This document shows, piece by piece, positions 599 through 49,626 of a stretch of 64,000 nt of DNA. Origin of the DNA: Candidatus Latescibacterota bacterium (GTDB lineage: Bacteria > Latescibacterota > UBA2968); NCBI GenBank assembly GCA_965198115.1, contig OZ240241.1, positions 5,792,001 to 5,856,000 on the forward strand. The letters run 5' to 3'. Under the pieces are notes generated by a model. That model had not been told where the DNA came from, made no database searches, and saw nothing but the letters and a program-made list of their open reading frames with translations. The position numbers were made by a program, and so were the translations under genes. The first letter of the stretch is position 1. Every line of letters begins with the position of its first letter.

Positions 599-675
599 AG
601 CCCGCTTCAGCGGGCGGAGTTTATCCTGAGCGCAGTCAAAGGGCTGCCCTAGCATGGGGATTCATCCCCACGTGC
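599..675. repeat. Family A double-hairpin REP-like repeat carrying a family B insert (615-643)
   Basis: AGCCCGCTTCAGCGGGC...GTGGGG..CCCCACGTGC type as at 1627, 2749 and 7717, but the TTCG after the first hairpin is replaced by GGAGTTTATCCTGAGCGCAGTCAAAGGG. Confidence 0.85.
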
Positions 676-710
676 GTTCGGCGCGGATTCTTTTTCGGGG
701 CATTGGGCGG

Positions 711-756
711 TTCTCGACGGAGTTTATCCTGAGCCTGCCGAAGGGCTCGAACTGAC
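711..756. repeat. Family H repeat (TTCTCGAC-TCCG-CTCGAACTGAC) carrying a family B insert (718-745)
   Basis: Direct comparison with the empty copy at ~31456-31478. Confidence 0.85.
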
Positions 757-787
757 GCCGCCAACGTTGAAAGACAGGTGAACTGCA

Positions 788-1501
788 ATGACAGTCTACG
801 ACTACGGAAGATCCTTCGTCACGTTCGTGACGCCGAATCGTGGAAACAATGCGCGGCTGCAGGTGGAGTCGGTGTGCTCGTTGACGGATCGACGGTCGGG
901 GAAGACGACGGATTATTTCTTCTATGCATCGTGCAAGTCGGAGCATACGTTCGCGGAGAGGGATCTGTTCATCGAGGAGAATTACGATTTCTGTGGCATC
1001 TTCTCCGATGAGGAGTATGTGATCTTTCGAACACATTCGACTCACACGGATCGATTTCGTGATGAGGGGGTCTGGCGGGAGCGGTTCCAGGACATTCGTT
1101 TTGATATGGTGAGCGTCGAAGCGGAAGAACTTGATGGGACGCCGGCGATGGTTCAGGCGTCGTTGGACAATGTTCCGTTGGTCGGGCGAGTGGAGATTGG
1201 AGAGGGAAATCTAAGTGCGGCGATCGAGTTTCCGATCAAGACGATGAACGCGAACGACATCAGGCCCATTTACCAGGTGGATACGGGGCCGCTTCCGTTT
1301 CCTGATTTTTCGGCGAATGTGGATCTTCATATCAAGCGCCTCTCGCCAGCCTACGTGGCATACAATGCGCCAGATTTCGCGGATTTCGTGGTACAGCAGC
1401 CGGTGTCGGTGGGTGGGGTGATGGTGACGCACTATTCGAATCCCGTAAGCCTACCGGCGAAGACGTCGGTGTTGGCGGTGAAAGTCAAAGACTGCCACTG
1501 A
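788..1501 (+). CDS. Hypothetical protein, 237 aa
   Basis: Long ORF with protein-like composition, ATG preceded by AGGTGA; no motif recognised. Confidence 0.75.
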   Translation: MTVYDYGRSFVTFVTPNRGNNARLQVESVCSLTDRRSGKTTDYFFYASCKSEHTFAERDLFIEENYDFCGIFSDEEYVIFRTHSTHTDRFRDEGVWRERFQDIRFDMVSVEAEELDGTPAMVQASLDNVPLVGRVEIGEGNLSAAIEFPIKTMNANDIRPIYQVDTGPLPFPDFSANVDLHIKRLSPAYVAYNAPDFADFVVQQPVSVGGVMVTHYSNPVSLPAKTSVLAVKVKDCH

Positions 1502-1626
1502 GAACACGGAGAACATCCCTCGCCTTCGCTCGGGACAGGCTCCGGTTGGTGTTGGTCCGGACGGGACCGAGGCGCTATCCGTGGATCAGAAGCTGGATCG
1601 AGGAGTGAGTGTTAGACCCATTATTT

Positions 1627-1679
1627 AGCCCGCTTTAGCGGGCTTTGCTGCCGTTGCGTGGGACTTCAGTCCCACGTGC
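1627..1679. repeat. Family A double-hairpin REP-like repeat
   Basis: AGCCCGCTTTAGCGGGCT...GCGTGGGACTTCAGTCCCACGTGC, with a compensatory change in the second stem. Confidence 0.85.
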
Positions 1680-1698
1680 TCTGAATGGGAGAGGATCC

Positions 1699-2655
1699 AT
1701 GAAAGTCGTTATCGCTTACAATCTCGGTGAAGACTACGTCGCAGACCTTCGGGCAACGTACCCGGATGTCGATATCGTGACAGCCTACACGCCGGAAGAC
1801 CAGCTGAAGGAAACACCTGATGCAGACGTGCAGTTCGGCACGATTTCGAGAGAGGCGTTTCTGGATGCTCGGAACCTGAAGTGGTTTCAATTCATCGGGA
1901 TCGGGTTCGATGGCATTGTAACCTCGATTCCAGAGATCATCGAAAGCAACGTCACGATGACGGTGATGAAGGCTACGCACGTCCCCTCCATTTCGGATCA
2001 CGCGATGGCGATGGTTCTGGCGTTTGCGCATCGGGTGCCGGAGTTGCTCGAGGATCAACGCGCTCATCGATGGGATACAAGCAGATATCATCACCGGATC
2101 ATCGAACTGGCCGGGACGACGATGGGTATTCTGGCGATGGGGGATCTTGGGCAGGGCGTTGCCGAGCGTGCTCGCGGGTTCAGAATGACGGTTTACGGCG
2201 TCGATCTGGAGCCTAAGGAGCTGCCGCCAGGTGTCGAGGCCGTCTGGGGACTGGACCGCCTGGACGAGATGTTGGAGCTCTCCGATTGGGTCGTTGTGAC
2301 CGCGCCACGGACCGCGGCAAGTCGTGGTTTGATCGGCCCCGCCCAATTCGAACGGATGAAACAAGATGCCCATATCATCGTGGTTTCGCGGGGAAGTATT
2401 GTCGATGAAGATGCGCTGGTCGACGCCCTTCGATCGGGCAAGGTCGGTGGGGCGGCGCTGGATGCGACGGATGTCGAGCCTCTTTCGTCAGATAGTCCGT
2501 TGTGGGACTTTCCGAACGTCATCATTTCGCCGCACGCTTCAGGGGATTCCGTGCCGCTGTGGGATCGACGGAAGGGGATCTTCAAGGAGAATTTGAGACG
2601 GTATCTGGCTGGGGAAGAGCTGATGTATGTGGCCGATAAAGGGCGGGGATACTAA
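1699..2655 (+). CDS. D-isomer-specific 2-hydroxyacid dehydrogenase (NAD-binding)
   Basis: GILAMGDLG Rossmann motif, VSRG, LDATDVEPL, IISPHASG; GAGAGG RBS before ATG 1699. Confidence 0.92.
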   Translation: MKVVIAYNLGEDYVADLRATYPDVDIVTAYTPEDQLKETPDADVQFGTISREAFLDARNLKWFQFIGIGFDGIVTSIPEIIESNVTMTVMKATHVPSISDHAMAMVLAFAHRVPELLEDQRAHRWDTSRYHHRIIELAGTTMGILAMGDLGQGVAERARGFRMTVYGVDLEPKELPPGVEAVWGLDRLDEMLELSDWVVVTAPRTAASRGLIGPAQFERMKQDAHIIVVSRGSIVDEDALVDALRSGKVGGAALDATDVEPLSSDSPLWDFPNVIISPHASGDSVPLWDRRKGIFKENLRRYLAGEELMYVADKGRGY

Positions 2656-2748
2656 AAACAAGGGAACCACAGAACACACGGAAGAGGAGGTAGACTAGGC
2701 TTCGAAGCGCTATTCGCGGATGGGATCGAGGCACGGACGCCGGACCAT

Positions 2749-2801
2749 AGCCCGCTTCAGCGGGCTTCGCTGCGTTAGCGTGGGGCTTTAGCCCCACGTG
2801 C
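2749..2801. repeat. Family A double-hairpin REP-like repeat between convergent genes
   Basis: AGCCCGCTTCAGCGGGCTTCGCTGCGTTAGCGTGGGGCTTTAGCCCCACGTGC. Confidence 0.88.
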
Positions 2802-2813
2802 TTTTCGTGGTAG

Positions 2814-3788
2814 TCAGTAGCACCCCGCCACGCGCGCCCTTTGCTGAACCAGGGCAAGGACGATGTCGATGGTGGGGGTTTCTATTTCGACGAGCCGTCC
2901 CACTTCCTGGATGACGGTCAGGAGGGCGTCGATTTCCATTGGGCGGCCACGTTCGAGGTCTTGGAGCATCGAGGTCTTGTGGGCGCCCACAGCGGCCGCG
3001 CCCGCGATGCGCTGTTCGACGTCGACACCGAAGCGCACGCCCAGTTTCTCACCGATCCCCTGAGCCTCGAGCATCATCCCGCGTGCGACCGATTGCGTGC
3101 CCTCTTCGGTGGCGATGACATCGAGCGTCGCGAGGGTGAGGGCGCTGATGGGGTTGAAGGTGAGGTTGCCCCAGAGTTTGACCCAGATGTCGTTGCGGAT
3201 CCTGGGACGGATGGGCGCCTTGAATCCGGCCTTGCGGAGGATTTCGCTCAGCTTTGCGACCCGATCGGTCTTCTCACCGCTGGGTTCGCCCAGGCTGAAG
3301 CGATCGCCTTCGATGTGCTGGATGACGCCGGGTTCGATGACTTCGGTGGCGGGATAGACGACGCATCCGATGGCGCGCTCGGGGCCGATTTTCTGCCACT
3401 GCTGGCCGCCGGGATCGACGCTTTCGAGCTGGTGGTCCTTCCACGGGCCTTCGAGTCCGTAAAAGTACCACCAGGGGATGCCGTTGGTGGCGGTGATGAC
3501 GGCCGTGTCCGGACCGAGCAGAGGCTGGATCGTGTCGACGATGCCGGGAACCGAGTGAGCCTTCAGGGTGATGATGACGACATCTTGGGGACCGACTTCG
3601 GCCGGGTCGTTGGTCGCCCGGGGATGGGCGACGCGCTCATCACCGTCGATGAGGAGTTTGACGCCGTTTTTCTGCATCGCTTCGAGGTGCGGCCCCCGCG
3701 CGATCAGGGAGACGTCGACGCCCGCGAGCGCGAGGTCGACGCCCAGGTAACCCCCGATGGCACCCGCCCCGAAGATGCAGATCCGCAT
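2814..3788 (-). CDS. panE: Ketopantoate-reductase family protein (PanE/ApbA; probable oxalyl-CoA reductase type)
   Basis: IFGAGAIGG, TLKAH, NGIPWW, WVKLWGN, HKTSMLQDLERGRPMEID; start overlaps the upstream ligase stop. Confidence 0.88.
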   Translation of the reverse strand: MRICIFGAGAIGGYLGVDLALAGVDVSLIARGPHLEAMQKNGVKLLIDGDERVAHPRATNDPAEVGPQDVVIITLKAHSVPGIVDTIQPLLGPDTAVITATNGIPWWYFYGLEGPWKDHQLESVDPGGQQWQKIGPERAIGCVVYPATEVIEPGVIQHIEGDRFSLGEPSGEKTDRVAKLSEILRKAGFKAPIRPRIRNDIWVKLWGNLTFNPISALTLATLDVIATEEGTQSVARGMMLEAQGIGEKLGVRFGVDVEQRIAGAAAVGAHKTSMLQDLERGRPMEIDALLTVIQEVGRLVEIETPTIDIVLALVQQRARVAGCY

Positions 3789-5296
3789 TAACCGATTCCC
3801 AGTTTTTCGGCCAGCCCGATGCGCTGCATCTTGCCTGTCGGGCCCTTGGGGATCTCTTCCAGGAACAGCACTTTCCGTGGCACTTTGAAGTCGGCCAGCT
3901 TCTCCGAGGCGAAGTCCCTGACCTCACGTTCGGTCGCTTCCTCACCCTCCCGCAGTACGATGGCCGCGGCTACATCCTCTCCCAAGGATTTATGCGGCAT
4001 TGCGAAGGTGACGACCTGCTGGACGGCGGGATGGTCCATCAGGACATCGTCGACTTCGCGGGGTGAGATTTTTTCACCGCCACGGTTGATGATCTCCTTG
4101 AGTCGTCCGGTGATGGTCACATAGCCGTCTTCGTCCATCACGCCCTGATCGCCCGTTCTGAACCAACCATTGGTGTAGTTTTCCGCGTTCGCGGTCGGAT
4201 TGTTCTCGTAGCCGAGGGTGACGTTCGGACCACGGATGACGACCTCGCCAATCGTCCCCTGACTCACCAGCTCACCGGCTTCGTCCATAATGGAAACTTC
4301 AGGTCCTGCGGCGGGGCCCACGGTTCCAGGCTTTCGCACCCCAGGGGGCAGCTGGTTGCAGGTCATTTGGTGAGCGGACTCAGTCATCGCGTAGGCTTCC
4401 ACAACGGGCGCATCGAAGGTCTTTTCGAGTTCGGCCATTACCTGAGGCGGTAGTGATGCGGATGACGACCGGACGAAGCGGAGTCTGGCGTTGTCGACGA
4501 TTTCCTGATTGCGGCCGGCACGGGTGAGGATGGCCTGGTGCATCGTGGGGACGGCTGTGTACCAGGTTGGGTTGGCGTCTTGCAGTGAAGCGAAGAACCG
4601 GAGGGCGTTGAACCCATCGGTGCAATACACGCTGGCTCCTGCGCTGAGCGTGGAGAGGATGGCCGCCATCAGCCCGTGGATGTGAAACAGGGGCATCACG
4701 TTCATACAGCGGTCGTCGGGCGTCAGATTCAGCGTATGCCGGATGTTTCCGGCTGACGCACATACGTTCTTGTGTGTGAGTGGGACGATCTTGGGTCGAG
4801 AGGTCGTGCCGGATGTGTGGAGCACCAGAGCGACGTCGTCCGTTTCCGCCAACCCACCCGCGAATGGGCTCATCTCGGCGGCGAGGTCGAACAATCCTGC
4901 CGGTTTCCCTCCGTCGGTGGTGAGCTCGATGATTGGAATTCCAATGGACGTAGCGGCTTCAACGGCGGGAGAATCACTGCCGGATTCGACGAGGAGGGCC
5001 CTGGCGTTCAGATCCTCCATATAGAATGAATATTCTTCGACCCTGTAGGCTGGATTAAGGGGCGCGGTCGTCGCGGCCATCGCGACCGAGATGTAGGAGG
5101 TGGCCATCTCGGGGCCGTTTGGCAGGACGATGGCGACCCGGTCATTTCGTCCGATGCCAAAGCCGTTCAGTGTCGCGACCGTCTTGTCGACCTGATCACG
5201 AAGGCCCTTGTAAGTCAGGTCAGGTCGATCGGCGGCAGAGATTGCGACTGCGTCGTCATCGCCGGCCAGGATTTCGAGGATTGTGGCGTCAGCCAT
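3788..5296 (-). CDS. Acyl-CoA synthetase, oxalate-CoA ligase-like
   Basis: LHTSGTTSRPKIVPLTH, MPLFHIHGL, WYTAVPTMHQ, RSSSASL, EAYAMTE, GWFRTGDQG, INRGGEKISPREVD, PKGPTGK. Confidence 0.88.
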   Translation of the reverse strand: MADATILEILAGDDDAVAISAADRPDLTYKGLRDQVDKTVATLNGFGIGRNDRVAIVLPNGPEMATSYISVAMAATTAPLNPAYRVEEYSFYMEDLNARALLVESGSDSPAVEAATSIGIPIIELTTDGGKPAGLFDLAAEMSPFAGGLAETDDVALVLHTSGTTSRPKIVPLTHKNVCASAGNIRHTLNLTPDDRCMNVMPLFHIHGLMAAILSTLSAGASVYCTDGFNALRFFASLQDANPTWYTAVPTMHQAILTRAGRNQEIVDNARLRFVRSSSASLPPQVMAELEKTFDAPVVEAYAMTESAHQMTCNQLPPGVRKPGTVGPAAGPEVSIMDEAGELVSQGTIGEVVIRGPNVTLGYENNPTANAENYTNGWFRTGDQGVMDEDGYVTITGRLKEIINRGGEKISPREVDDVLMDHPAVQQVVTFAMPHKSLGEDVAAAIVLREGEEATEREVRDFASEKLADFKVPRKVLFLEEIPKGPTGKMQRIGLAEKLGIG

Positions 5297-5731
5297 TCAT
5301 GCACTCCGGTTGATGGTGTTCAATAGCAGACTGCTGTCAGCCTTGCGAGCATTCAATATTGTGTTTGGGGGCGGTCTGTGCAAGATCTGAGGGGACAGAA
5401 TAACCGTCTTCTGGGTTCATTGCTGGTCAGTAGTGATCCCACTTTCTTGACCGACCAAGAAAGTGGGCAAAGAAGTCGCCGCTCAGGCGCCGCGGGGGCT
5501 TGTGCCCCGGCTCCCTCGACTCCGCTCGGGACAAGCTCCAGTACGATCGAGGCGCGCGACTGCAACCTGTGATACCCTCGAAGAGCCTCCCCACCCAGCC
5601 CTATCCCCCCTGGAGTTGAAACAGCTCAGTTGCTCGCTGCCGCCTCTACCGGGGCGTCATCGTGTGGACAACAGCGTGAACCCAATAGACCACGAATCTG
5701 TCGAATGCTCCTTGGGTCCATCAGCCAAGGC

Positions 5732-7406
5732 CTACCCACGCCGGTCGGCGGTGGGGCGGAAGCGGACGCCGGCTCTGGCGGGGCCCCCGCTTAGTGCGGC
5801 TGGAGATCCGTCGGCTCGCCAGCAGCAGGCGCCGGTGATGGTGCCGTCGTTGGCGTATTGGATGCCATTCATGCCGCCGGCTACCGCTCGGACCGATCGA
5901 GTGGAGTGGCCACGTTCTGACAGCACGTCGCAGACGGTTTGGGGAATCTCGGATTCGAGTTCGAGGTCCTGACCTTGGGTCCAGACGCGAGGCGCCTCGA
6001 CGGCTTCCTGGAGCGTCATCCCGTGGTCGATGACGTTGATGATGCCCTGCGTGACCGTGGGGAAGATGCGGACACCGCCCGGTGTGCCGAGAGCCATAAA
6101 GGGCCGGCCGTCTTTGGTGATGATAGTGGGGGCGTTGCTGCTGACCATTCTACGATTGGGCGCGACCGAGTTGGGATGGCCGGGATGGGGATCGAACAGC
6201 GACATATTGTTGTTCAGCAGGAGACCGGTTCCCGGAACCATCACGTTGGCGCCGAAGCCCTCGTTGATGGTCTGCGTGAGGGTGGCCACATTGCCATCCG
6301 CGTCGGCGGCGGTGACGTGCGTGGTTGACCGTACGTTTGGTCGGTCGCGCGGGTCTGGTCGATATCAGCGCGTCGCGACTCCCCGTAAGACTTGGAGATG
6401 AGCCAGTCGACAGGAATGTCCATCTGCGAGGGATCACCGACGTGCTTGCTCCGATCGGCGAAGGCGATCTTGAAGGATTCGGCGAGGAGGTGGATGCCGT
6501 CGGGTGTGCCGAAACCGAGACCGGCGACGTCGAAGCCTTCGAGCAGATTGAGGATCTGGAGGATGTGAAGGCCACCGGAGCACGGTGGTGATGGCACGGT
6601 CAGATTGTATCCGCGATAGGATCCAGCGAGTGGCGGTCTTCTTTCCGTGCGGTAGGCACGGAGATCGTCCATCGTGAGCAGCCCGCCGTTGGCCTGAGTC
6701 TCATCGATGATCGTCTGGCCAAGTGGGCCGTCGTAGAGCACATCCGGTCCGTCTGTGGCCAGTGATCGCAAAGTCTGCGTGAGGTCGGGCTGGACGATGC
6801 GATCTACGGGTGTGGGTGGACCACCATCACGGAGGAAGACTTCGGCAGCTGCGGGCGATCTGGACAGGTCCTCTGCTCGCTCGCGGATGCTGTCGATGAG
6901 ATAGGAGCTGGGGTGATACCCTCGCTCGGAATAGCGAATGGCCGGCTGGAGGACGGTTTCGAGGTCCAGCCGGCCGTAGTCGTTGACGACCTCGACCCAA
7001 CCCTTGAGCGCACCGGGCACGCCGACGGCGAGGTAGCCGATCTTGTTCTTCCGGCCTTCGGCAAGCATCTAATCCGGCCACGTATCGGAGACGGGTGTGT
7101 AGATGTCGGGTGTGGCAGCCGCGGGGGAGGTGGCGTAGTTGTCGATAATGACGGGAGACCCATCGGCGAGACGCAGGTTGATCCAACCAGCCCCGAAGAG
7201 TCCGACCATCTGGGCTCGACAACGTTGAGCGTGAAGAGTGCGGCGACCGCGGCGTCGAAGGCGTTGCCACCGATGGCGAACATTTCGAGGCCCGCCGATG
7301 AGCCGAGCGGGTGGTTGGCTGCGACGACGCCAAGCGAACCTGAGACTTGGGATTTCGCGCAGGTGAATGGGGATTGGGTGTGGTTGCGCCAGGAGGGAGC
7401 AGTCAA
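5732..7406 (-). pseudogene. ggt: Gamma-glutamyltransferase, disrupted by frameshifts ~7210 and ~6340 and in-frame TAG 7069-7071
   Basis: Fragments: GGNAFDAAVA...VVEP / MVGLFGAG...TWPD* / VGVPG...PPCSGG...FADR / TTHVTAADADGN...GLLLNNNM...LGTPGG...AVEAPR. Confidence 0.88.
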
Positions 7407-7462
7407 GAGGACTCCGCAAATTTGTTAGAATGCGATCGGTTCACAGTCGGCGCCGGTGGACC

Positions 7463-7657
7463 AGTCATCCCGAGGCACGATGCGAATACAATTGGGTGAC
7501 GGGGCGAGACGGATCGATGTGCCGAGGGATCCCTTGTCGCGTGCAACGGGGCCGCTCATTCTCCCGGACTCCTCTGCAGCTGAGCAGGGATCCCTCATCG
7601 TGTCATTGTTCTACATAGCGGATGAGCGAATGGATTGGCCTTACGATTCGGGATGAC
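7463..7657. repeat. GTCATCCCGA...TCGGGATGAC bracketed inverted-repeat element (CGTC-type REP-like pair)
   Basis: Terminal 10-bp inverted repeats and internal GGGATCCCT palindromes; related ends at ~30228-30297. Confidence 0.6.
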
Positions 7658-7716
7658 AGCAGAGCGCCGGGAGTAGGTTCAACAACCATCTGTGACGGCC
7701 ACACTGATCGAACCCC

Positions 7717-7769
7717 AGCCCGCTTCAGCGGGCTTCGCTGCATTAGCGTGGGGCTTTAGCCCCACGTGC
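7717..7769. repeat. Family A double-hairpin REP-like repeat
   Basis: Differs from 2749-2801 at about one base. Confidence 0.88.
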
Positions 7770-7783
7770 TTGTTGCGGCCCCT

Positions 7784-9154: not shown

Positions 9155-9330
9155 TGAGATTCTCCCGAAAAGCCAACAAACCACGGAACACAGAGAACAC
9201 GGAGGGAGGTTGAGAGGTCCTCGAGGATCCAGGCCCTAATCGGGGAAAGGATCTGATGTGACCCCAAGTATTCCAGCGAGGAGCCTCTTCCGCTCCCGCT
9301 CACCCAGTCTCCCGTTCTCCCGCTCCACTC

Positions 9331-10738: not shown

Positions 10739-10765
10739 GTCACGTCTCAGAACCGGTTGGGCGTC

Positions 10766-12217: not shown

Positions 12218-12224
12218 ACGTTCC

Positions 12225-14774: not shown

Positions 14775-14861
14775 CGGATCATCCTCTAGAAAAACAACCA
14801 CGAAGACACGAAGGCACGAAGAAAGGCATATGCAAAGAACACCCTGCCGAATCAGGTTCGC

Positions 14862-17374: not shown

Positions 17375-17416
17375 GGGAGGACTGATGAGTGCCTAATTAG
17401 AGATGACAGGGTCCAG

Positions 17417-19772: not shown

Positions 19773-19896
19773 TCGGTTGACTTTGTTGTTTGATGTGATG
19801 GGCGGGTTCTCGACCCTTCGGCTCCGCTCAGGACAGGCTCCCGCTCGAACTGACCGCCGCCAAGATTGGGCTGAATTGCTCGGCAGTCTGTTGCAG

Positions 19897-20730: not shown

Positions 20731-20815
20731 TCAGGTAACCCTTTGAATCGAGAATCGATCCGCCTTCGCCAAGGCTACGGCGGACAGAGGATCGAGAATT
20801 GAACTGCGGCTATGG

Positions 20816-21706: not shown

Positions 21707-21736
21707 CGTGACCTCAAATCTACGACTTCCGGACGT

Positions 21737-31363: not shown

Positions 31364-31403
31364 TAGTATGTACCTTGGTCGAGTTTACTGCACTCCGTTA
31401 CAA

Positions 31404-31478
31404 GGTCACTTCGAGCGGAGTCGAGAAGTCCCTTCTCGCGTGTGCGAGGGGCGTGTTCTCGACTCCGCTCGAACTGAC
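31404..31478. repeat. Inverted pair of empty family H repeats
   Basis: GTCACTTCGAGCGGAGTCGAGAA ... TTCTCGACTCCGCTCGAACTGAC. Confidence 0.8.
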
Positions 31479-31490
31479 GCCGCAAACGCT

Positions 31491-32387: not shown

Positions 32388-32486
32388 CCGCTTTCGCTCC
32401 TCTCGATCGGTGGCCAATATGCTCCAGAATGACCGCAAGTTCCACACCTCATTCTCGGGGAACGGAGTCTCCCCTCCGGGTCGACT

Positions 32487-34415: not shown

Positions 34416-34588
34416 AGGATGCTTCCTCGCTGAGGAGGATTGACGGGTTTCGAGGATGTAGCAAGCTGAGGGGGCGACGGGGCGAGCGGGCGAGGCGATG
34501 GCTTCGCGTGAGCGTTTTGGTGGGACCGGCCTCCCGGCCGGGAAGAACCATCGGGCGGGTGATCGTGAGGTTTTTTGGGTAGGACCGG

Positions 34589-34633
34589 CCCTTCGACGGA
34601 GTTTATCCCGAGCGAAGTCGAGGGGCTCAGGAT
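34589..34633. repeat. Family B element nested, inverted, inside another family B element
   Basis: CCCTTCGAC[GGAGTTTATCCCGAGCGAAGTCGAGGG]GCTCAGGAT. Confidence 0.8.
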
Positions 34634-34717
34634 GTACCTCCCGGCCGGGAACGCGTCTGGCGTAGAGTAGTCGCAGGCTTCAGTCTGCGTACCCAGTGGG
34701 CGATATAGGACGAAACT

Positions 34718-36640: not shown

Positions 36641-36697
36641 ATGGTAGGAGGTGACGGAGGAGCTTCGGAGCAGGAGAGGGCTTGGGAGTAAGACTTA

Positions 36698-37959
36698 GTA
36701 CTCCTGTTCTCAAATACGGTGACGTATTCTAAGCAGACTTTGCCAAGGGCGTATCGTAGAACCTGAGTTTGTCGATCATCTCCGCGAGATCTGTTCGTGT
36801 GAACTTCCATTTGAAGGGTGTGGCGATACGTCCGTAGCGTTCCTGAAAACCGAGGATTCTTGCCTCAAGCTCTTCGAGCGATGCAAATTCGATAGGTGTC
36901 AGAGCCTTGCGTTTGAGGATCGAGAAGTAGATCTCGATCTGATTGAGCCAGCTTGCGTGGATCGGAAGGTGAACGGGGTGGATGTTTGGCCACTTCCCCT
37001 GGATACGGTCGATGCATGTTTGCCCTCGGTGCGAGGAGCCATTATCCACGATGAGGTAGACTTTCTTTGCCGAGCAATAGGGTTTCCGGCTCATGATCAG
37101 GCTCAGGAGCCGGTTGAAGGGCTCGATACCCGAAGAAGACTCACAGAGACCGAAGATTCGACCATTGTGCACGTCGAGAGCAGCCAGATAGGCCAGGGCT
37201 CCTTTCCGCTCGTATTCGTGTTCAACGCGTGCCGCTCTGTTCGAGGCTGGCGGTAGGGTAACGTGCTTGCGAGCTCGTGCTTGAATACTGGTCTTTTCGT
37301 CGGCAGAAAGTACATATTCCCTCGGCCCTAAAGGCTTTCCTTGCCATTGGCGGTGATACAGATCAAGGACTCTACCTGCTTTGGTTTGGAAGTCCGGGTC
37401 CCGTGGGAAAATCCAGGAGCGATGATACCAAGGACGAATCGCGTCCTCGTTCAACCAGCGCCAGACAGTGGCGCCGCTGATCTTGGCAACGAAGCCCCTT
37501 TGCACTGCCTCGGCGGCAATCTCGGAACAGCTGAACCGCGAGAGCGGTATCCCGCTCTCGCTCGGTAGTTCACACGCCAGCGCCTTGATCTGAACGACCA
37601 CCTGAGGGGGGGAAAACCGGGCGGGCGCCCGGGACGAGATCTATCTTCGAGTCCCGAAAGACGCTCTTCGAAAAAGCGCTTACGCCATTTGCTTACGATC
37701 GGACGCGGGACATCCAACCGTTGGGCGATACTCTTGTTGGATAATCCCTCGGCGGCGAGAAGCACGATTTTCGATCGGATCACTTGATAATACGGTAACG
37801 TATATTGTCCAGCCATTCGCTCGAGGTCGACCCGTTCCTTCTCAGACAGTAGCACCACATAAGGCGAACGTCTTGGCATTGTTCTCCTCCTTTTGAAGGA
37901 GAACATAAGCTACAAATAATGTTCATAACATACGTAATAATGTTTATGAAACCATGCAC
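36698..37959 (-). mobile_element. IS630-family element; transposase in two ORFs (37879 start, 36729 stop) joined by a probable -1 frameshift
   Basis: HTH ORF (VSKWRKRF...RPGRP), slippery TTTTCCCCCCC at 37606-37616, DDE ORF (SADEKT, IVDNGSSH, HASWLNQIEIYFS). TTA flanks at 36695-36697 and 37960-37962; imperfect ~29-bp terminal IRs. Confidence 0.92.
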
Positions 37960-38276
37960 TTAGCTGAGCGGGAGACGGGGCGAACGGGAGAGCAAGTGTG
38001 GCGATGGCTGACGCGTGATGGTTTGGTGGGACTGGCCTCCCGGCCAGGAACCTGTGACGGATTCTTCTGCACAAATGGCATTTCCGATCTGTTCGCAGCC
38101 GGGTGGCTGCTCCCACCGCCTTGCTATACGCCAATTGAAAAAGTGGCCTCGGGGCCACAATTGTAAGTCCTGATAAATAACGTGTTATAAAATTGTGTGG
38201 TGGCGTTGCCACGCCTGCTCGCCATCGCGCCGATCTTCTTCTTCTCGCCTGCTCGCCCCACGCTTGCTCGCGAACC

Positions 38277-39272: not shown

Positions 39273-39416
39273 AAAAACCTTGAACCACCCTTCGACTACG
39301 CTCAGGACAAGCTTCGACACGAAGACACAAAGAAAATCTGGGAGGGAAAACCATCCTGATCCCTCCGCATCGGGAACGAGAAGGAGGCTTGTCGCCCCTT
39401 CGTGTTCGCCAAAACC

Positions 39417-40883: not shown

Positions 40884-41002
40884 TGGGTTCTCGTTGGATA
40901 AAAAAAGAAAAGGACACAGGTATGATACCTATGGCCTGGAGCGATTCACAAACGGAGGCTTTCGGGCTCTGCCCGGCCACTACAGTCACGGCAAGGACGC
41001 TC

Positions 41003-41106
41003 TCCCCCGTGCTCTGCACGGGGGACCTGTGGGAAGGCGATCGAACGAAAACCTTTACCGGTGCAAGCGGCTAGAAACTTTTGTCCCCGTGCAGAGCACG
41101 GGGACG
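41003..41106. repeat. Inverted pair of CCCCGTGCTCTGCACGGGG palindromes
   Basis: Copies at ~41005 and ~41085; related CGCCCTCGTGCTCTGCACGAGGGCG at ~52871. Confidence 0.7.
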
Positions 41107-41153
41107 AGCGAGGCGCTGTTGGATGTGGAGCGAGCGGAGCCCGCGGGAGATGA

Positions 41154-43958
41154 CTACAGGTCCAGCTGGTAGGAGAGCTTGAGGAGGACAGAACGGCTAC
41201 GCCGCGTCAGGTTGAAGCCGCCGCCGTTGATGGGGTCGTCCGTCGTGTCGTATCCGCTGTCGAAGACGAGGAAGATGTCGCTGCCCGGTCGGTATTCGTA
41301 GTTGAGGAGGAAATTGGCCGAGATGGTTTCGTCGTCGTTGTTCCACTGGGAGAACACTTTAACGAAGAAGTTGGTGGTGATGGAGTAAAGAAGTCGCGTG
41401 CCGAGGGTGTGGATGCTGAGATTCGCCTGGGGAAGCCGGATCCAGTTGCCCCTGTAGTTGACTTCGAACGACGCTCGACCGGTTGGCCTGAACGCACTTT
41501 GCGATCGGATCGAGTAGCGCCGACCCGTGTAGTAGGTTCCCGCTTCGAAGCTGAATCCAGGTCTGATCCATCTCTTTCCACTCGGTCGTGGACCGGTTCT
41601 GATCGTCGTGAATTTGTAGGTGCCGGGCGGAATGACGACATCGCTACGACGGTCGGATGGTGCGAACTCTTCCGTGACGACATCGTAAAACCGCGTCGCC
41701 TGGGACGACCACGCGTCGCCCGAGTTGAACAGTGTGTACCAGGATGCTTCGCCGGTCCAGTACTTCACGTCGTTCGCTCGGTCTGTCCATAGCTCCAACT
41801 CGGGGCCGATCGACATATAGCGGATGTTGCCGAACCCGGGTTTCGGGCGCCAGCGCAGGTAGACGTTGTAACGGCGGAATCCAGTCAGGTCGCCACGGCG
41901 GTTCACGAATCCAACGGCGGGCTCGAAGTTCTCCTCGACGTCGAGGTATTTCAATCGGGACCAGAATGTTCTGCCGCGATAATTCAGGAAAATGAACCGA
42001 GCATCACCCGTTCCCTCGATGTCCGAGTCCCAGGTTCGGGCCGCAAAGCCCTGGAAGTTCAATTTGCTCGTGGGTGAGTAGCTGAAGTCGAGACCGGCTG
42101 CCCGGTTGTAGGTGCTCCACCCGTCGATCTGTTTGTTGACCATAACGAAGCCGACGTTCGATCTCGCGAAGAGGTCGCGTCTGACGCGGAGAACGGAATA
42201 GTTCGTGCGCCGGACGTGGATGCTGTCACCGTCGTCTTCGAACGAGATGGGATCGGTCAGGACGTTGAGGGCGCCGATGCTCGTTCGACCTTCTTTTCCG
42301 GCCAGTTTCGTGCCGACCAGGATCGGGACCTGGCGTCTCTCCTCCAGACCGATCCGCCTCGAGTAGAAAAGAAGCGTGGGGGGCTCGGTCCCACTTCCTC
42401 TGAATCTGGCAGCCTCGCCAAACTCGAACAGGTTGGCTCCCTCGAGGAAGAATTCCCGTTTTTCTGGAAAGAAGAGACTGAATTGCGTGAGGTTGGTCCG
42501 TTCCTGATCACCCTCGACCTGGGCAAAGTCCGTTTTGTATGAAACATCGAGACCGATGTTGGAGGTGATGCCGTAGCGGAGGTCGAGTCCCGTGTCGAAG
42601 GAAGAGTTTTCTGCAGGATCGGTGACGCGGAAATCTTTTGATGTTCCAGGCAGAATGTAGGGCCTGATCTGGATGGGCCGCCTGGTCTTGACCTGTCGTA
42701 GACCCTTGAGCTCGCCGATGTCCATCATCAGGTAACGCTCGGTCGGTGAAGAGCTCTGTACGCCGACGACAAGCTGGGTGGCTTCGTTCTTCCTTGCGTT
42801 GAAACGGGAGAGATTGATGCCCCAGACCATATCGTCGCCTGGTTTGAATCGGAGCTGGCTGAAGGGGATCTGAACTTCGGCGGTCCAGCGATCCGCTTTT
42901 CGCTCCGTGCGACAGGTCCAGTTACAGTCCCAGTCTCGGTTGTAGGTGCGCCCTTCGTTGGAGAGCATATAGTCGGCCTGGGCCCCGAGGGGATTCACGA
43001 AGAAGAAAAACCCGTTCTGACGATCGTTGAACGTGTCGAGCAGGATCTGGACGTTGTCGTCGCTCGTCAGCTCCGAATCCCGGCGCATATTGTTCGCCAC
43101 CGACCCGTTCCCTTCAGGAATGGGGCAGTCGAAACCGAAGTAGATGTTCTCGTCGTCGTAGATGATCCGGGCTACGGTGTTCTCGGCGCTCGGAGCCCAG
43201 TAGTTCGGGTCGCGTTGGACGAATCCTTCGATCGGTCTGGCGGACGCCCACACGGGGTCGTCGAGCACGCCGTCGAGGTTCGGACCGTCTTCCACGCGTG
43301 CGGCGTGGACGGTCCGTCGGGCCTTTCGCCTGTTTCCGTTTCCGAGAGCGACGTGGATCAGGCGATCAGCAGGCTTGTAGGACGCTCGCTCGGATGAGGT
43401 GGTGCGTGCGACGATGACGTCATCGAGTTCTTTGATGACCTCGAGGTCCTCGCCGAACCCGTTTTCGCCCGATGTGGAGAGGCGACTCCAGAGCGGGACC
43501 GACCCGTTCATCCCTTCGACATAGACGAGGTCGCCGCTGACTTCACGAACTCTGCCCTCGATGTTGGAGACGGCTACTCGCTCTGGCGCGGCTTCCGAAT
43601 CACCGTTGGTCGATTCCGAGGCCAGACTGACGATCCACAGGCCCTCATGGGCGGACCGGATAAGGGCGACTTGCGACATCCCGGGTTCCAGATCGACGAT
43701 CTCACCGCGTGCGAATCGGTTTGAGCCATCGATGATCTCCACGATGCCTATTGGGGTGGCGCCACCATCGGCGGTGTATTCGGACAGGGGTCCTCCGACA
43801 ATGCGCAGACGATCTCCCTGTCGCACAGGTTTACCGTCCCGCAGGTCTATGAAGACTTTGCCGTCGTAGATTCGTACCACGTGCCCGCGAATCTCCTGGC
43901 CCGCGACCGGTGTAGACAGTGCAAAAATCAGGGTGATGATTGTGAGGGTTCTGTGCAT
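41154..43958 (-). CDS. Secreted/outer-membrane protein with CBM9-like and DUF5916-type domains
   Basis: Signal peptide, LDGVLDDPVW, QILLDTFND, WTAEVQIPFSQLRF, TDFAQVE.D, FFPEKREFFLEG, LFYSRRIG, C-terminal LKLSY. Confidence 0.82.
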   Translation of the reverse strand: MHRTLTIITLIFALSTPVAGQEIRGHVVRIYDGKVFIDLRDGKPVRQGDRLRIVGGPLSEYTADGGATPIGIVEIIDGSNRFARGEIVDLEPGMSQVALIRSAHEGLWIVSLASESTNGDSEAAPERVAVSNIEGRVREVSGDLVYVEGMNGSVPLWSRLSTSGENGFGEDLEVIKELDDVIVARTTSSERASYKPADRLIHVALGNGNRRKARRTVHAARVEDGPNLDGVLDDPVWASARPIEGFVQRDPNYWAPSAENTVARIIYDDENIYFGFDCPIPEGNGSVANNMRRDSELTSDDNVQILLDTFNDRQNGFFFFVNPLGAQADYMLSNEGRTYNRDWDCNWTCRTERKADRWTAEVQIPFSQLRFKPGDDMVWGINLSRFNARKNEATQLVVGVQSSSPTERYLMMDIGELKGLRQVKTRRPIQIRPYILPGTSKDFRVTDPAENSSFDTGLDLRYGITSNIGLDVSYKTDFAQVEGDQERTNLTQFSLFFPEKREFFLEGANLFEFGEAARFRGSGTEPPTLLFYSRRIGLEERRQVPILVGTKLAGKEGRTSIGALNVLTDPISFEDDGDSIHVRRTNYSVLRVRRDLFARSNVGFVMVNKQIDGWSTYNRAAGLDFSYSPTSKLNFQGFAARTWDSDIEGTGDARFIFLNYRGRTFWSRLKYLDVEENFEPAVGFVNRRGDLTGFRRYNVYLRWRPKPGFGNIRYMSIGPELELWTDRANDVKYWTGEASWYTLFNSGDAWSSQATRFYDVVTEEFAPSDRRSDVVIPPGTYKFTTIRTGPRPSGKRWIRPGFSFEAGTYYTGRRYSIRSQSAFRPTGRASFEVNYRGNWIRLPQANLSIHTLGTRLLYSITTNFFVKVFSQWNNDDETISANFLLNYEYRPGSDIFLVFDSGYDTTDDPINGGGFNLTRRSRSVLLKLSYQLDL

Positions 43959-43981
43959 TGCCGGATCTATGCCTTTTACAG

Positions 43982-44018
43982 AAAAGAAAGGGGGCCCTCG
44001 ATCTCGGGACCGAGGGCC
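43982..44018 (-). terminator. Intrinsic-terminator-like hairpin just upstream of the DUF5916 gene
   Basis: Minus strand GGCCCTCGGTC-CCGA-GATCGAGGGCC followed by CCCTTTCTTTT. Confidence 0.6.
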
Positions 44019-44254
44019 TTAGTAATATCGACCTGATAAATCGTTGTATTTACAGTTATTTGCGACTGGAAGGATGGAGAATGTCCATCGGGATCGGATC
44101 TGTCGTGAGATCTGGGCAATGTCGAGACACTGTGGGCGGTATCTGAGACGCCGTGGCTGGCGATCGAGCATAAATCCTGCGACCTGTGTGCGTGCCCGGC
44201 TGAGGACGACGAACCGTCAAATTATACGGTGAATCGAAGGGGACGCCACCCCAT

Positions 44255-45595
44255 TCAGGAGGCACCGAATTCCTTCGTCGCCTGACCGAGGGCAAGGTCG
44301 AGCGTGGAGACGGCTGTCTCGATCTCCTCACGATCGATGATGAGCGGAGGGTAGAACCGGACATCGTCTCCGTTGATCCAGTCGGCGCAACCCGAGGTTG
44401 CGGACATGTGGAGGCCGTGCTCCATCGTGATCTGAGGGATTCGCGCGGAGACTTTCTGGTCGGCCGAAAACGGTTCCTTGGTCTCGCGGTCCTTGACGAG
44501 CTCGATTCCCATCATCAGGCCCTTGTGGCGGATGTCGCCGACGATGGGATGCTCGTAAAGTCGTTTTGCCGCCGTCTCGAGGTAGGCGCCCATCTCGACG
44601 ACGTGGTCGAGGATTCCTTCTTCTTCGATGATGTCGAGCACGGTCGATGCGACGCGTGTGGCCACTGGGTTGTTTACGTAGGTGAAGACGTGCGGGAAGG
44701 ATCCGGCTCCGTCGAGCGCGTCCCGAATGTCGTCGGATACGAGCACACCGCCCAGCGGCATATACCCGGCTGTGGCCCCTTTGCCGAAAACGAGGAGATC
44801 GGGGACGATGTCCCAGTGTTCGATGGCGAAGTAGCGGCCCGTTCGACCGAAGCCTGTGATGATTTCATCGGCGATGAAGAGAACGTCGTAGCGGTCGCAG
44901 ATCTCACGTACCCTTGCATAGTAGTCTTCGTGCGGTGAGCTGACGGTGATGCCCCCGTTGACGACGGGCTCTCCGATGAAGGCTGCGACGGTTTCGGGTC
45001 CGGCTTGCAGGATGGCTTCTTCGAGTTGGTCGGCACAGGCCAGATTGCACGATCCCTCGCATCCCGCAAACTTGCATCGGTAGGGATAGCTGGGATCGAT
45101 TTTTGGAAAATCGGGAATCCACGGAGCGAAGGGAGAGCGCATCGCGGGCAAACCCGAAGCCGACAGCGCACCGAGCGTGGCTCCGTGGTAGCTTCGCCAC
45201 CGGGAGATGACTTTGTGCTTACGCTCACGGCCGTGCTGGAGGTGGTAGAGGCGGGCGAGCTTGAAAGCGGTCTCGTTGCCCTCCGAGCCACCCGAGACGA
45301 AGTAGACGTGATTCAGGTTGCCCGGGGCCAGGCCCGCCAGGCGTGAAGCGAGGTCGAGGGCGGGTCGATTCGTGAAGAAGGCGGAGAAGCAGTAGGCCAT
45401 CGTTTCGGCCTGGTCGGCCATCACCTCGGCGATGCGTTTCTGACCGTGGCCGAGCGTAACGTTGCCCGCGCCGGAAACGCCATCGATGTAGCGGTTGCCT
45501 TCGTCGTCGATCAGGTAGATGCCTTCGCCCCGGACGATGACGGGATACGTGCCTTGGGGGTCACGGTGGATCAACGCGTCTCTGGATGTGGTCAT
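44255..45595 (-). CDS. Class III PLP-dependent aminotransferase
   Basis: GEGIYL.D..GNRYID, SGGSEGNE, SYHG, FIADEIITGFGRTG, PDLLVFGKG, PPLII. Confidence 0.92.
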   Translation of the reverse strand: MTTSRDALIHRDPQGTYPVIVRGEGIYLIDDEGNRYIDGVSGAGNVTLGHGQKRIAEVMADQAETMAYCFSAFFTNRPALDLASRLAGLAPGNLNHVYFVSGGSEGNETAFKLARLYHLQHGRERKHKVISRWRSYHGATLGALSASGLPAMRSPFAPWIPDFPKIDPSYPYRCKFAGCEGSCNLACADQLEEAILQAGPETVAAFIGEPVVNGGITVSSPHEDYYARVREICDRYDVLFIADEIITGFGRTGRYFAIEHWDIVPDLLVFGKGATAGYMPLGGVLVSDDIRDALDGAGSFPHVFTYVNNPVATRVASTVLDIIEEEGILDHVVEMGAYLETAAKRLYEHPIVGDIRHKGLMMGIELVKDRETKEPFSADQKVSARIPQITMEHGLHMSATSGCADWINGDDVRFYPPLIIDREEIETAVSTLDLALGQATKEFGAS

Positions 45596-47532
45596 TGCGA
45601 CTCCAACAGATCGATGGTCAGGTCGTTGCAGGGTGCGTGCAAGTGTAGGGCTTGATCGCTGACTGCGGCGGTTACGATCCCCTCGGGAGTTTCGATTTCT
45701 CAGCCGCTGTCGGTGTCGTGCCACTGTACGGTCGGTCGACCCGTGGAGGAAACTGCGAACAGGGACAGGAGGCGACATCGTGAAGCCTTCACCGTCGTTT
45801 CGACATAGGGTTCGTGGCGTTGCTTGAACACGTCGCCGAGCCGGTGGCGATTGTAGGGTTCACGGTATTCGTGCCTATGGTCGGTCAGGACGAGGTCGGT
45901 CTCGTCGAGCGAAACGACACGTGCGGAAAGGGATGCCCGCTCGGTTTCGACGGTGAATGATCCGGTCTCATCCGGGGTCGAGGGTACGGACGGATGCCAA
46001 CGGAGGGAGATCGTTTCTTCGGTCTCAAGGTCAGCTTCATCCAGGACGGCGATCGTCGTGGGGAGAAGGTGTGCGACCGTTCGTCGTACGGCCGTCACGT
46101 CGTCGTGTTTTCCCGTGAGATCGATCTGCCAGATACCGCCCTCACCGTCTTTGAAGTCCGCGCTGAGAATCGTGGCTTCGACGGCCGATTCGTGTCTCAT
46201 TTCGCGTCCACCGAAGACGAGGATGTTGTGCCCGAAAGCGGCGGCGTTGTAATACTCGTATTTCTTGGCACCGTAATCACCCGGGTAACCGGGCGGCGAC
46301 CCGAGATCGACGATGAGACGCTCACCATATCCGTCGATGCAGACCTGGCCGACGTCGTGATTGCCGTGGACGATGACGCCGCTGCCGCCCTTGCCGTAGA
46401 CGATCGACGGGGGCGCAACGGGATCCCAGTTGGTGCGGCTGCTGAAGCCGGCGTCGTGCTTGCGAAAGGCGCGCCCCGTTGGGATGAGTCCATCGAGTGG
46501 GACCGGTTCCAGACTCGGGTCGTACCAGAGGAGTTCCCACACGAGCGACCGCCGGGCCTCGTCTATCCCGGCGTAATCCAGGTAGAACTGCTGGAGACAG
46601 CCATCCCGCGTCGCGTCCGCCACAGCGGGAAGATAGGAGAGGGCGGGTGGCGCGTCGACATCGCCGTCGCCGAATGCGGCGTAGCGACCGGGCGGCAGGG
46701 TGAAGTAGAAGATCCAGCTGCAGGTCTGCGGGAAAGGAGGCTCCGCGAGCCGGTTGACCCCACCGCCGCTGGCGTAGCGCTGCGCGGTGAAGAAGGCGAC
46801 GGGCTGGACCGTCGAACTGGCGTAGCCGACGGATTCGCTGAATTCGCCTTCCGGCCCGAACTGATCGAGGTATTCGATCATTCGAGGAAGAGCAACGTCG
46901 ATCAGCTCCCTGGCGCGTGGATGATCGTCGCCGAGCGCCATCCCTGCGATACCGTGTCCCCCGACGACGACGGTCAGCCAGTTGGTGCGCACGTCGAGCC
47001 AGTAGGCGTTTTCAGCGACGTCCGCCAGATAGAGCTGTAGATCGCATCGGTCGAGCCCCTCGATGATGGCGTCGCGGTCGGCCTGATCCAAAAGGGGATA
47101 CATCCAGTCGTAGGCCAGCCCGATCGCCTGGGAGAGCTGGCCTCCACGGAGGTCGACGCGGGTCTTGGGGTGAGCTTTGTCGCGCCAGTCCGGGTAGCGG
47201 TTGGGATCGAAGACCGCCTCCATCTGGTGGAGGACGTCGTCGCGGTATTCCGCTTTTTCGCTGATGAGGTAGGTCAGGGCCGCGCGCTGGATGCGCTGGG
47301 CGACAGCGTTGATGAGGGTCCAATCCCTGTTTTCGTGATCGACGTCGAGCTGGGGCCTGCCGGGAAGGGTGGAGGTGGGTAGGAAGGGGTCTTTGGCGAT
47401 ATCCGCATCGGCGAGCGCCTGTAGTTTCCCCCAGAGCGTTCTGAGATGGCCGGATCGAACGCCCTGGCGCAACTCGTCGACGGATCTCAGGCCTTCGATC
47501 TTCTCAGCAGTGACGAAGATGTGTGGATGCAT
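45592..47532 (-). pseudogene. Heparinase II/III-like polysaccharide lyase with premature TGA at 45700-45702
   Basis: TNW...G, GEFSESVGY, FGDG, HGNHDVG, GHNIL. The frame stays open after the TGA for 35 codons, to a TGA overlapping the next ATG. Confidence 0.7.
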
Positions 47533-47630
47533 TTGTAGGCTAACCTTGACAAGGTTGGTCAGTCGCGGCATTAAGGGGGCTGTGAACGGGGAGGTCAAGC
47601 CTGAACTGGACGGCCTCGACAATGGGCGAG

Positions 47631-47718
47631 TTCTCGACCCTTCGACTCCGCTCAGGACAAGCTCGCGCTCCCGACTACGCCAAGGCTACGTCGGGAATGC
47701 GAACTGACTCCGCTCGAG
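47631..47718. repeat. Family H repeat containing a family B and a family C insert
   Basis: TTCTCGA-CCCTTCGACTCCGCTCAGGACAAG-CTCGCGCT-CCCGACTACGCCAAGGCTACGTCGGG-...CGAACTGAC. Confidence 0.75.
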
Positions 47719-47757
47719 TTGGCCACTTTCATACCTTGTATGTAAAATGGGTGGACT

Positions 47758-49452
47758 ATGAGTGAAGAAATTATCCTGTCGGATATGGGGCAGTGCCAAC
47801 CGACCACGGCGCTGTCTCCCGCCCGGCGTCTCAACCACTGGCAGCTGATCCCGTATGAAACGGAGACGTTCGCGGGGCAGCTGATATCTGCGGGCTTTAT
47901 GACCGAACCGCCGGAGGTGAGACTGCCATCCTCGCACCAGGGATGTTTCGCCATTTACGTCGGTTTGTGGATGGCAGGAGAAAGCGCCGGCGGGTGGGGA
48001 AGGGCGACGATGGGGTCCGACGCGGTCGGGAGTCTGAAGATCAAGCTGGAGAGCGACGCCTGCTTTGTCGCGTTCCGTCGAGAAGCACCGGCGAGGGACA
48101 ATCTGGAGGATGTGTTCTGGAAGATTGCCGATCTGGACGGCGACGACTTTGTGTTCGCGCAGCAGGCGTCCGGGATCAAAGGTCAGTCCTCGGTCGCCTA
48201 CATCCGGCTCGTGCAGCTGTCGGCAGATGAAGAGGCTGCGTGGCGCGAGGATGTCGCGAAACCCGAACACAAGCGGCTCGTGGCGACGAACGATGCGTTC
48301 GGCGTGTTCTTCCGGAACTGTATTACTACGCGGGAAGGTATCTGGGAACAGGTCGAACCGTATCGGAATACCGATTTCAAGATGCTGTGGTGGGAAATCG
48401 TGAGCGGGATGTTCGGGGCGTGGCGGAAGGAAGGAAAGACCTATGGGGAGGGTGTGGAGGATTACCCCAGGCCGGGCGATCTGTTTGCGGCTGAGAGCTA
48501 TAGGACAATGCGTGAGGAGGGGATCAATCCGCTGAAGACGGCGATGGATTACGCGCACGACATCGGCCTGGAGTTTCACGTCAGCCAGCGGTCCGAGATG
48601 TTCCAGACCGGACCCCCGTTCGAGGAAGTATTCAGTACCCAATTCTACCTGGACCATCCCGAATGGCGGCTGCGCGACATCGATGGTACGGAAGTGACGG
48701 GAATGAGCTACGCGCACCAAGGCGTTCGTCAATACCTGGTCTCGCTCCTGGAGCAAGCGACATCTCTCGGCGCAGACGGTGCGTGTATCATCTACCCCCG
48801 GTCGGCGCCGTTCGTGCTCTACGAAGACCCATTCGTCGATGCGTTCGTGGAACGTCACGGCGAGGATCCCCGGGAGATCGATGAGGAAGACGAGCGCGTG
48901 ATCGATCTGCGCGCCGAGTTTATGACGGCCTATATGTGTGAGTTGCGAGAGGCGATGGACCGCGTGGGTCAGAAACTGGGACGCCGTCTGGCGATGTCGG
49001 CGATTGTTTTCGCGACGGAAGCGGAGAACCGGCTAGCTGGACTGGACCTCGCGAGATGGATTCGAGAGGGTCTGCTCGACCACCTGAGTCCGTATCCATA
49101 CAGCCGCGCAAAGAAGGTGATGGATATCGAGACCGGCTATTTTCGAAGCATCACGGCAGAAACAGGGTGCCGGCTCTACCCCAACGTGATGCCGCGCCAT
49201 ATGCCGGCTTCGGAATACCGGGAATTGGCAAAACACTACTACGATGAAGGTGCGGACGGTCTGCTGTTCTGGGACACCTACCAGCGACACGACGGCAGTT
49301 CGCAGTGGGAGACGATTCGACGTCTCGGGCGCAAGGAAGAGATCGAAGCGGCAATCGCACAGGCGGATCCGCAGAACGAGCCCAGAATCGTTCCGCTTAC
49401 CAAACTGGCCGGTCACCATATGCACCGATACTCCCCTTATCGCGGTGCGTAG
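47758..49452 (+). CDS. Uncharacterised protein with GHL10/DUF187-like TIM barrel
   Basis: GINPL..AMDYAHDIGL, FYLDHPEWR, MSYAHQGVR, GLDLARWIREGL, GADGLLFWD. Confidence 0.65.
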   Translation: MSEEIILSDMGQCQPTTALSPARRLNHWQLIPYETETFAGQLISAGFMTEPPEVRLPSSHQGCFAIYVGLWMAGESAGGWGRATMGSDAVGSLKIKLESDACFVAFRREAPARDNLEDVFWKIADLDGDDFVFAQQASGIKGQSSVAYIRLVQLSADEEAAWREDVAKPEHKRLVATNDAFGVFFRNCITTREGIWEQVEPYRNTDFKMLWWEIVSGMFGAWRKEGKTYGEGVEDYPRPGDLFAAESYRTMREEGINPLKTAMDYAHDIGLEFHVSQRSEMFQTGPPFEEVFSTQFYLDHPEWRLRDIDGTEVTGMSYAHQGVRQYLVSLLEQATSLGADGACIIYPRSAPFVLYEDPFVDAFVERHGEDPREIDEEDERVIDLRAEFMTAYMCELREAMDRVGQKLGRRLAMSAIVFATEAENRLAGLDLARWIREGLLDHLSPYPYSRAKKVMDIETGYFRSITAETGCRLYPNVMPRHMPASEYRELAKHYYDEGADGLLFWDTYQRHDGSSQWETIRRLGRKEEIEAAIAQADPQNEPRIVPLTKLAGHHMHRYSPYRGA

Positions 49453-49626
49453 GCGTGCCAAAGGGGGAATAGGGTAGCCCGCGCGAGGCTTCTTTCCGAT
49501 ATTCGACCTTCATCATCGCTGCAGGGCTCGGCATAGCGTGCCGCAGCCCTTGATCCTTCGACTTCGCTCCCACCTGCGCAAAGCTACGGTAGGACGGGCG
49601 CCGCTCGGGGTGACCGCCGCTTCACG

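Follow-up and report, generated by a model that had tools for sequence, protein, structure and literature searches.

The 64-kb window analysed here (64,000 nucleotides of contig OZ240241.1, assembly GCA_965198115.1, from a Candidatus Latescibacterota bacterium) lies in an 8.43-Mb genome and contains copies of a short hairpin, which we call B, set into other repeats. The original prediction was that B is a separately inserted micro-element, mobilised in trans, that nests in hairpin repeats and in itself, and the filled and empty alleles that we find between genomes support this view. Throughout, B denotes the insertion-form 24-mer, with a junction base before it and three variable bases after it; a slash, as in C/GGCA, marks the point of insertion. 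Eight of the nine positions at which copies had been reported hold B (24-mers, except for one of 23 nt), and the ninth, 49555, holds a parent-type hairpin with a different insert of 30 bases. The empty copies of host repeats A and H are present as described, as are the copies said to lie inverted in H at 718, direct in H at 19814 and within another B at 34597. The features, all on the plus strand unless noted, are:

599..668, plus: host repeat A, filled; empty A copies lie at 2749 and 7717.
616..643, minus: B in A, with junction C at 643, the 24-mer at 619-642 and a terminal TCC at 616-618 that replaces the GAA of the empty host.
710..756, plus: host repeat H holding a B of 23 nt (722-744) on the minus strand; the loop is overwritten.
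1516..1543, plus: B in a 9-base-period tandem repeat, 24-mer at 1517-1540, junction T, tail TCC; such repeats also flank PF13366 genes.
2749..2800, plus: empty host A.
5512..5539, plus: B in a host family with the empty form C/GGCA, 24-mer at 5513-5536, T junction, TCC tail.
7717..7768, plus: empty host A.
19806..19854, plus: host H with B at 19815-19838, of the same polarity as H and immediately after the loop C.
31405..31478, plus: empty doublet of two H-type hairpins as an inverted pair, with H at 31455-31478.
34589..34637, plus: three layers, a GTAG-type host, an outer B (34590-34637, tail TGTAC) and, in the loop of the outer copy, an inner B (34601-34624, minus strand).
39288..39315, plus: B (39289-39312) in a 9-base-period tandem repeat, tail TTC.
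47630..47708, plus: host H with two inserts, B at 47639-47662 in the loop and a family-C insert at 47671-47700 in the arm.
49554..49615, plus: parent-type hairpin, not insertion-form B, with a different 30-base insert, of family C, at 49570-49599.

Short-read contigs of runs X1 and X2, possibly from the same sample as the assembly, span 1517, 5513, 19814, 47638 and 49555 without letter changes. Empty forms of the hosts at 1517 and 5513 occur elsewhere (C/GGAG-like and C/GGCA, respectively), and a sister site of the latter family, at genome 401318, has an orthologous filled/empty pair. Rfam holds no curated-family match for B and gave one unrelated sub-threshold match in the window.

B is numerous in the genome and widespread outside it. 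An exact pattern finds 121 copies, its reversed control none, and a looser core matches 230 times, 151 of these having a YRRRC tail, where simulated sequence gives 10 matches per 2 Mb. With stem variants added the set comprises 186 copies, about 6-8 of which are degenerate and were judged to be chance matches; 171 of the 186 lie outside roughly called genes in a genome that is 80% coding, and 15 lie inside. The unit is 23-25 bases long: the two arms of a short stem enclose an inner hairpin, which is bulged and has a loop of 2-4 bases, and a five-base tail follows, that of insertion-form copies being CAGGC, TAAAC, CAAGC, TAGAC, TGAAC or TGTAC. Its stem covaries (T-A 100, C-G 50, T-G 6, C-A 2). 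Because TGAC-tailed parent forms, of the type of the CGTC-tagged repetitive extragenic palindromes (REPs), sit in the same genome, B is most simply read as a REP of the CGTC type in which the five-base tag has changed to GYYYR. The exact pattern is found in 18 of 61 genomes searched, the source genome included. A fixed 28-mer recurs letter-identical in at least 121 stretches of the genome collection, spanning many bacterial phyla (the 80 listed stretches are from Acidobacteria, Chloroflexi, Verrucomicrobia, Deltaproteobacteria, Rhodothermales, Gemmatimonadales, Pirellulales, Eremiobacterota, WOR-3 and others), and in 84 stretches of viral contigs.

We conclude that B inserts because five orthologous filled/empty pairs and an in-frame insertion in a phage tail gene show both states of the same site. 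The comparison with a related genome that had been proposed as a check was made with G001, of the same genus, and covered 1.96 of its 5.6 Mb. Three pairs are filled in G001 and empty in the source genome (L078, L079 and L086), and two are filled in the source genome and empty in G001 (genome 401318 and 8324389); a nested site, L087, is filled in both, and at genome 5773312 G001 carries a different insert at the same C. Synteny with G001 extends to 42 of the 186 sites, 36 of which have no recognisable host and are uninformative. Among the listed results for 25 G001 copies there are three clear filled/empty pairs and one shared insertion. The phage tail gene (PHROG 394) carries B as a clean 24-base insertion in frame: 10 of 27 loci could be aligned, and two are filled, seven empty and one occupied by another insert, the filled genes being 99% alike beside empty relatives at about 90% identity. 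Within the source genome, an empty paralogue exists for 116 of 186 B sites, compared with 39 of 186 positions nearby and 29 of 150 taken at random. A glycosyltransferase gene gave a gain of 21 rather than 24 bases (3 filled and 15 empty, 18 of 22 aligned, homologues at no more than 72% identity), and no population polymorphism of B was seen in the contigs of runs X1-X3, which come from one study. At its size, B is likely to be among the smallest mobile DNA elements.

Further sites were noted beside these. An H-type doublet at genome 7383090-7383230 has both arms filled here and empty in G001 (L313:1720-1800), between the same flanking genes in opposite orientation; being inverted in G001, the doublet (7383109/7383206) was not counted as a filled/empty pair. 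At the phage-tail position where L525-L527 carry B, L530:360-436 has a shorter, different insert. Copies inside genes are found at genome 393376, 4795581, 5287576 and 4366052-4366076. A tandem B pair stands in frame within a 1932-residue open frame, and the other listed in-gene copies are in histidine-kinase-like genes; three histidine-kinase-like paralogues have B in frame, and their sisters are without it.

At the junctions of these insertions, C precedes B at 161 of the 186 sites (T at 18, G at 6, A at 1) and at 71 of 83 viral loci (T at 12), and the junction T faces a stem A in 17 of 18 cases, indicating that it is element-derived. Register is kept at 90 of the 116 sites with empties, comprising 22 clean insertions and 68 in which the next three bases are changed. 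About 63 of the 68 carry TCC, TCT, TTC, TCG or GCC after B. This TCC comes from the element and takes the place of 2-3 bases of the target while the gain in length stays constant; overwriting is not universal, since TCC follows only 9 of 83 viral copies. A fold-back origin of the tail is suggested by GCC after GGG stems in 8 of 11 cases, but TCC follows both stems. The reciprocal junction, in which target bases would replace the first three of B, was sought by eye among 79 tail-only matches and found in none.

B had been proposed to be added at a CTYCG pentamer, in either orientation. When the empties are grouped into 29 host sites, CTYCG is present at one, its reverse complement CGRAG at nine and neither at 19. 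The C/GRAG class is thus the commonest, at 9 of 29 against a background of 1.3% (p about 1e-10, the sites not being fully independent). Excising all copies in silico and reading the joined targets, as the original prediction recommended, does yield CTYCG at 63 of 186 sites, and it is this that was misleading, because the excised 24-mer leaves behind a CTYCG that the element itself supplied. The target is not simply inverted either, since 9 of the 10 sites for which CGAAG is the most frequent empty form end in TCC rather than TTC, CGTAG sites end in TAC at 0 of 6, and orthologous C/GGC targets have TCC after insertion. A strict CTYCG target and inversion of the pentamer are therefore rejected. 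What B requires is a C before it, with C/GRAG preferred, and CTYCG holds only in the sense that its opposite strand shows the preferred class.

The loop of B is itself a C/GRAG site, and B does nest in itself, as had been proposed: B enters its own loop and its own arm, nesting reaches four layers, and host-B-B-B stacks occur (for example at genome 5406224). A single host nucleotide carries 4-12 variants of B, and hairpins of two further families, C and D, which are unrelated to B and have a YRRRC-type tail, insert cleanly at the same host C. This sharing of one nucleotide by many B variants and by C and D argues for repeated insertion events. Composites of host and B are also copied as units, and several of them are near-identical and multi-copy. 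Family C is a hairpin micro-insert of about 30 bases with some 20 copies genome-wide, usually with the YRRRC-type tail, and is found behind a C in H, in B-type hairpins and in tandem repeats of 7 and 9 bases; its copies in the window are at 47671-47700, 49570-49599 and about 20761-20787. Family D is a 37-38-base hairpin with a CAGGC tail (genome 1668101, 7676151, 7181705 and 916958) that has entered the 9-base tandem repeat cleanly at the very C used by B, and its core resembles the repeat flanking an intact GIY-YIG gene at genome 214165.

The host repeats border genes of RAYT (REP-associated tyrosine transposase), Y1, PD-(D/E)XK and GIY-YIG types. Family A lies on either side of the Y1-type transposase gene at genome 1604940, another host family flanks a RAYT-like gene at genome 3908052, H flanks small GIY-YIG genes, a CGTC REP host flanks an Ssn-like gene in G001 (L612), and the 9-base tandem repeats flank PF13366 genes (the GxxExxY family). 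The insertion-sequence (IS) load of the genome is very heavy. One element has about 249 copies, its tested motif being absent from the window, and 75 Y1 matches belong mostly to one IS200-type element. Window positions 1-527 are multi-copy, and 36694-37963 is an IS region in which 36729-37601 encodes a DDE_3 transposase.

B works like a passenger of Ssn- or REP-type systems, yet it does not fall within their definitions, and its rule is apparently undescribed. Its likeness to the NTS/SRM-Ssn system lies in the tagged imperfect hairpin of about 28 bases and in a cut site a few bases 5' of the five-base tag, near the variable end of B, as far as the available text of Chenal et al. (2025, PMC11893778) describes them; the hairpin core of B also flanks small GIY-YIG genes, as inverted pairs. 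The tags differ, however (GYYYR in B, CGTCA in the SRM), and the available text deals with cutting and restriction of transforming DNA rather than with insertion, nesting or overwriting. CGTC-tagged REPs resemble B as imperfect palindromes of 20-40 bases that are multi-copy and mostly intergenic. In three species such REPs have been noted to lie within other palindromes, and they also occur in genes (Di Nocera et al. 2013, PMC3733652); they are described as lacking a dedicated transposase, and the accessible part of that paper gives no junction rule, self-nesting or overwriting. Insertion-form B, in contrast, has no CGTC/TGTC tag directly before the stem, and only the parent forms have TGAC.

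REP/REPIN-RAYT systems share with B a hairpin mobilised in trans and a single-strand logic, and are cut after C (PMC8266576, in the portion available), and the H-type doublets are REPIN-like. The junctions of B would fit cleavage after C (C/T, C/A), but the GTAG found 5' of such hairpins is in the B consensus on neither strand, it is a host family and not B that flanks the RAYT-like gene at genome 3908052, and B moves as a single 24-base hairpin that lands inside REPs, not beside them. Miniature inverted-repeat transposable elements (MITEs) and Rickettsia palindromic elements are likewise non-autonomous and can sit in frame in genes (24 bases being 8 codons). B is far below their 70-300 bases, as summarised in the part of PMC3733652 available, and has no terminal inverted repeats, and its filled/empty pairs show no target duplication beyond one ambiguous C. 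The nesting and overwriting rule was not described in the literature searched, most subscription papers being outside reach, so that its absence is not proven; a preprint on Minerva (10.64898/2026.09.22.753630) uses NTS repeats, in the text available, only as a benchmark.

No candidate mobilising enzyme was found in the window, as had been stated. Three routes had been suggested, HUH/RAYT-like, nuclease-driven and template switching; the hairpin core points to an Ssn-like GIY-YIG nuclease, but RAYT co-occurs more tightly with B-rich genomes. We suspect, while giving the idea slightly less than an even chance, that a small GIY-YIG (Ssn-like) nuclease acts in trans to cut out B, a gene-less 23-25-base hairpin that inserts after C and mostly inside other small repeats, and to deliver it as a single strand of DNA. 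The nuclease would cut some 3-4 bases past the tag on the strand that carries it, freeing a single-stranded piece with up to three flanking bases, and this piece would be joined at a break ending in C, preferably at a C-GRA-G triloop or where the host repeat's own nuclease has opened a site. GNA mini-hairpins are stable. Joining before or after the three loop bases would give clean or overwritten ends of equal length. The loop and tail of B would both serve as C-NNN-G sites, such that every insertion makes new targets, and the composites would afterwards be copied as units with their hosts.

Among the evidence for this nuclease, 58 of 80 small GIY-YIG genes from metagenomes have a B-core hairpin no more than 700 bases away, against 0.1 of 80 in shuffles, in a sample biased by its choice (the 80 loci, of 591, closest to a query that is itself core-flanked). 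The source genome has two such genes, the intact one at 214165 and L002 (genome 508900-510700), which is split by an IS. H lies upstream of L002, and a hairpin filled with B stands at its stop codon, which is made up of the three variable bases belonging to the B copy next to it. A tree of 34 sequences places the source-genome genes outside the Ssn-like clade, with the core flanking both that clade and the P0001/L002 group. The associated nucleases match PF01541 only in the library used, and NCBIfam has no name for P0001. A route by reverse transcriptase was set aside, PF00078 having no match in the genome. The available text of PMC11893778 reports that SsnA, a single-domain GIY-YIG enzyme, cuts single-stranded DNA four bases before the CGTCA tag, giving a 20-base product from NTS75, and that a homologue cuts one base differently. 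Placed in register, the SsnA cut would fall at the edge of the variable tract of B, within one base.

Like the sampling bias, a number of observations weigh against the nuclease. Looking for genes flanked by B, another of the checks proposed, found full insertion-form B at only 1 of the 80 GIY-YIG loci; a GIY-YIG gene lies within 1 kb of 0 of 80 cross-phylum B loci, and the core was found near 0 of 23 viral GIY-YIG homologues. No single GIY-YIG subfamily is present in all B-rich genomes: the source genome has only P0001/L002, G061 and G062 showed only other types, and none was found in G031. Co-occurrence across genomes favours RAYT, which exceeds the cut-off in 7 of 10 B-rich genomes and 4 of 43 B-free relatives, over small GIY-YIG genes, which occur in 9 of 10 and 22 of 43, kin not being independent. 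None of the 186 copies matches the published degenerate SRM pattern, which has 74 matches elsewhere in the genome, the predicted folding of B is weak (-0.5 to -1.2 kcal/mol), and the T junction is not significantly linked to the TC tail (p=0.31). To our knowledge, GIY-YIG enzymes hydrolyse DNA and do not join it.

A joining chemistry would be provided by an HUH enzyme (RAYT/TnpA-REP or IS200-type Y1) that cleaves both donor and target after C and links the two by way of its tyrosine, with B as a one-hairpin passenger. B is indeed bounded by a C on both sides, most often followed by T, and TnpA-REP cuts C/T, and also C/A and C/C, and performs strand transfer, according to the portion of PMC8266576 available. 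The RAYT counts given above and the two host families flanking Y1/RAYT genes in the source genome lend further weight. We nevertheless consider this explanation unlikely: B is without the GTAG guide, its core flanks GIY-YIG genes instead and was not seen in the inspected flanks of the genome's Y1/RAYT genes, apart from one copy about 450 bases from a RAYT fragment, and clean strand transfer alone does not account for the 2-3 overwritten bases.

It is less probable again that no dedicated enzyme is involved and that, at a stalled fork or nick within a repeat, a 3' end in C changes template to a B hairpin and returns after copying 24-27 bases. Junction homology of a single base, the lack of target duplication, hosts drawn from unrelated systems, entry into coding DNA and the distance of B from nuclease genes would all suit such a process. 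Ends that are exact in register at 90 of 116 sites, a 28-mer letter-identical across phyla, and unrelated hairpins with the same five-base tail, pointing to recognition by a protein, do not. We assign a similarly slim chance to a few old insertions having been amplified as host-plus-B composites, their TCC ends arising from later gene conversion and B no longer being independently mobile. The near-identical multi-copy composites, the nested site L087 common to G001 and the lack of polymorphism in X1-X3 are in its favour, and gene conversion may account for part of the overwriting. Against it, empties exist for 29 host sites, the junction contexts fall into 62 clusters, genomes of one genus yield filled/empty pairs in either direction, and filled phage genes are closely similar beside more divergent empty ones.

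A further possibility, on balance doubtful, is that B, C and D form a class of hyperparasitic micro-transposons of 24-37 bases defined by a shared five-base tail. Such elements would cut and rejoin into C-NNN-G loops with the option of swapping the three loop bases, ride on the repeats of at least four unrelated nuclease families, cross phyla and phages unchanged and write 8-residue peptides into proteins. How REP-like repeats spread is a long-standing question that remains open, and for Ssn nucleases cutting is the only activity shown so far. With its exactly defined donor ends and targets and its two classes of junction, B should allow the mobilising enzyme to be identified with a few oligonucleotides. 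If confirmed, B would rank with the smallest mobile DNA units and would be a parasite that lives on parasites; it would also supply bacterial and phage proteins with in-frame insertions of 8 residues, and it may exemplify a minimal single-strand insertion chemistry.

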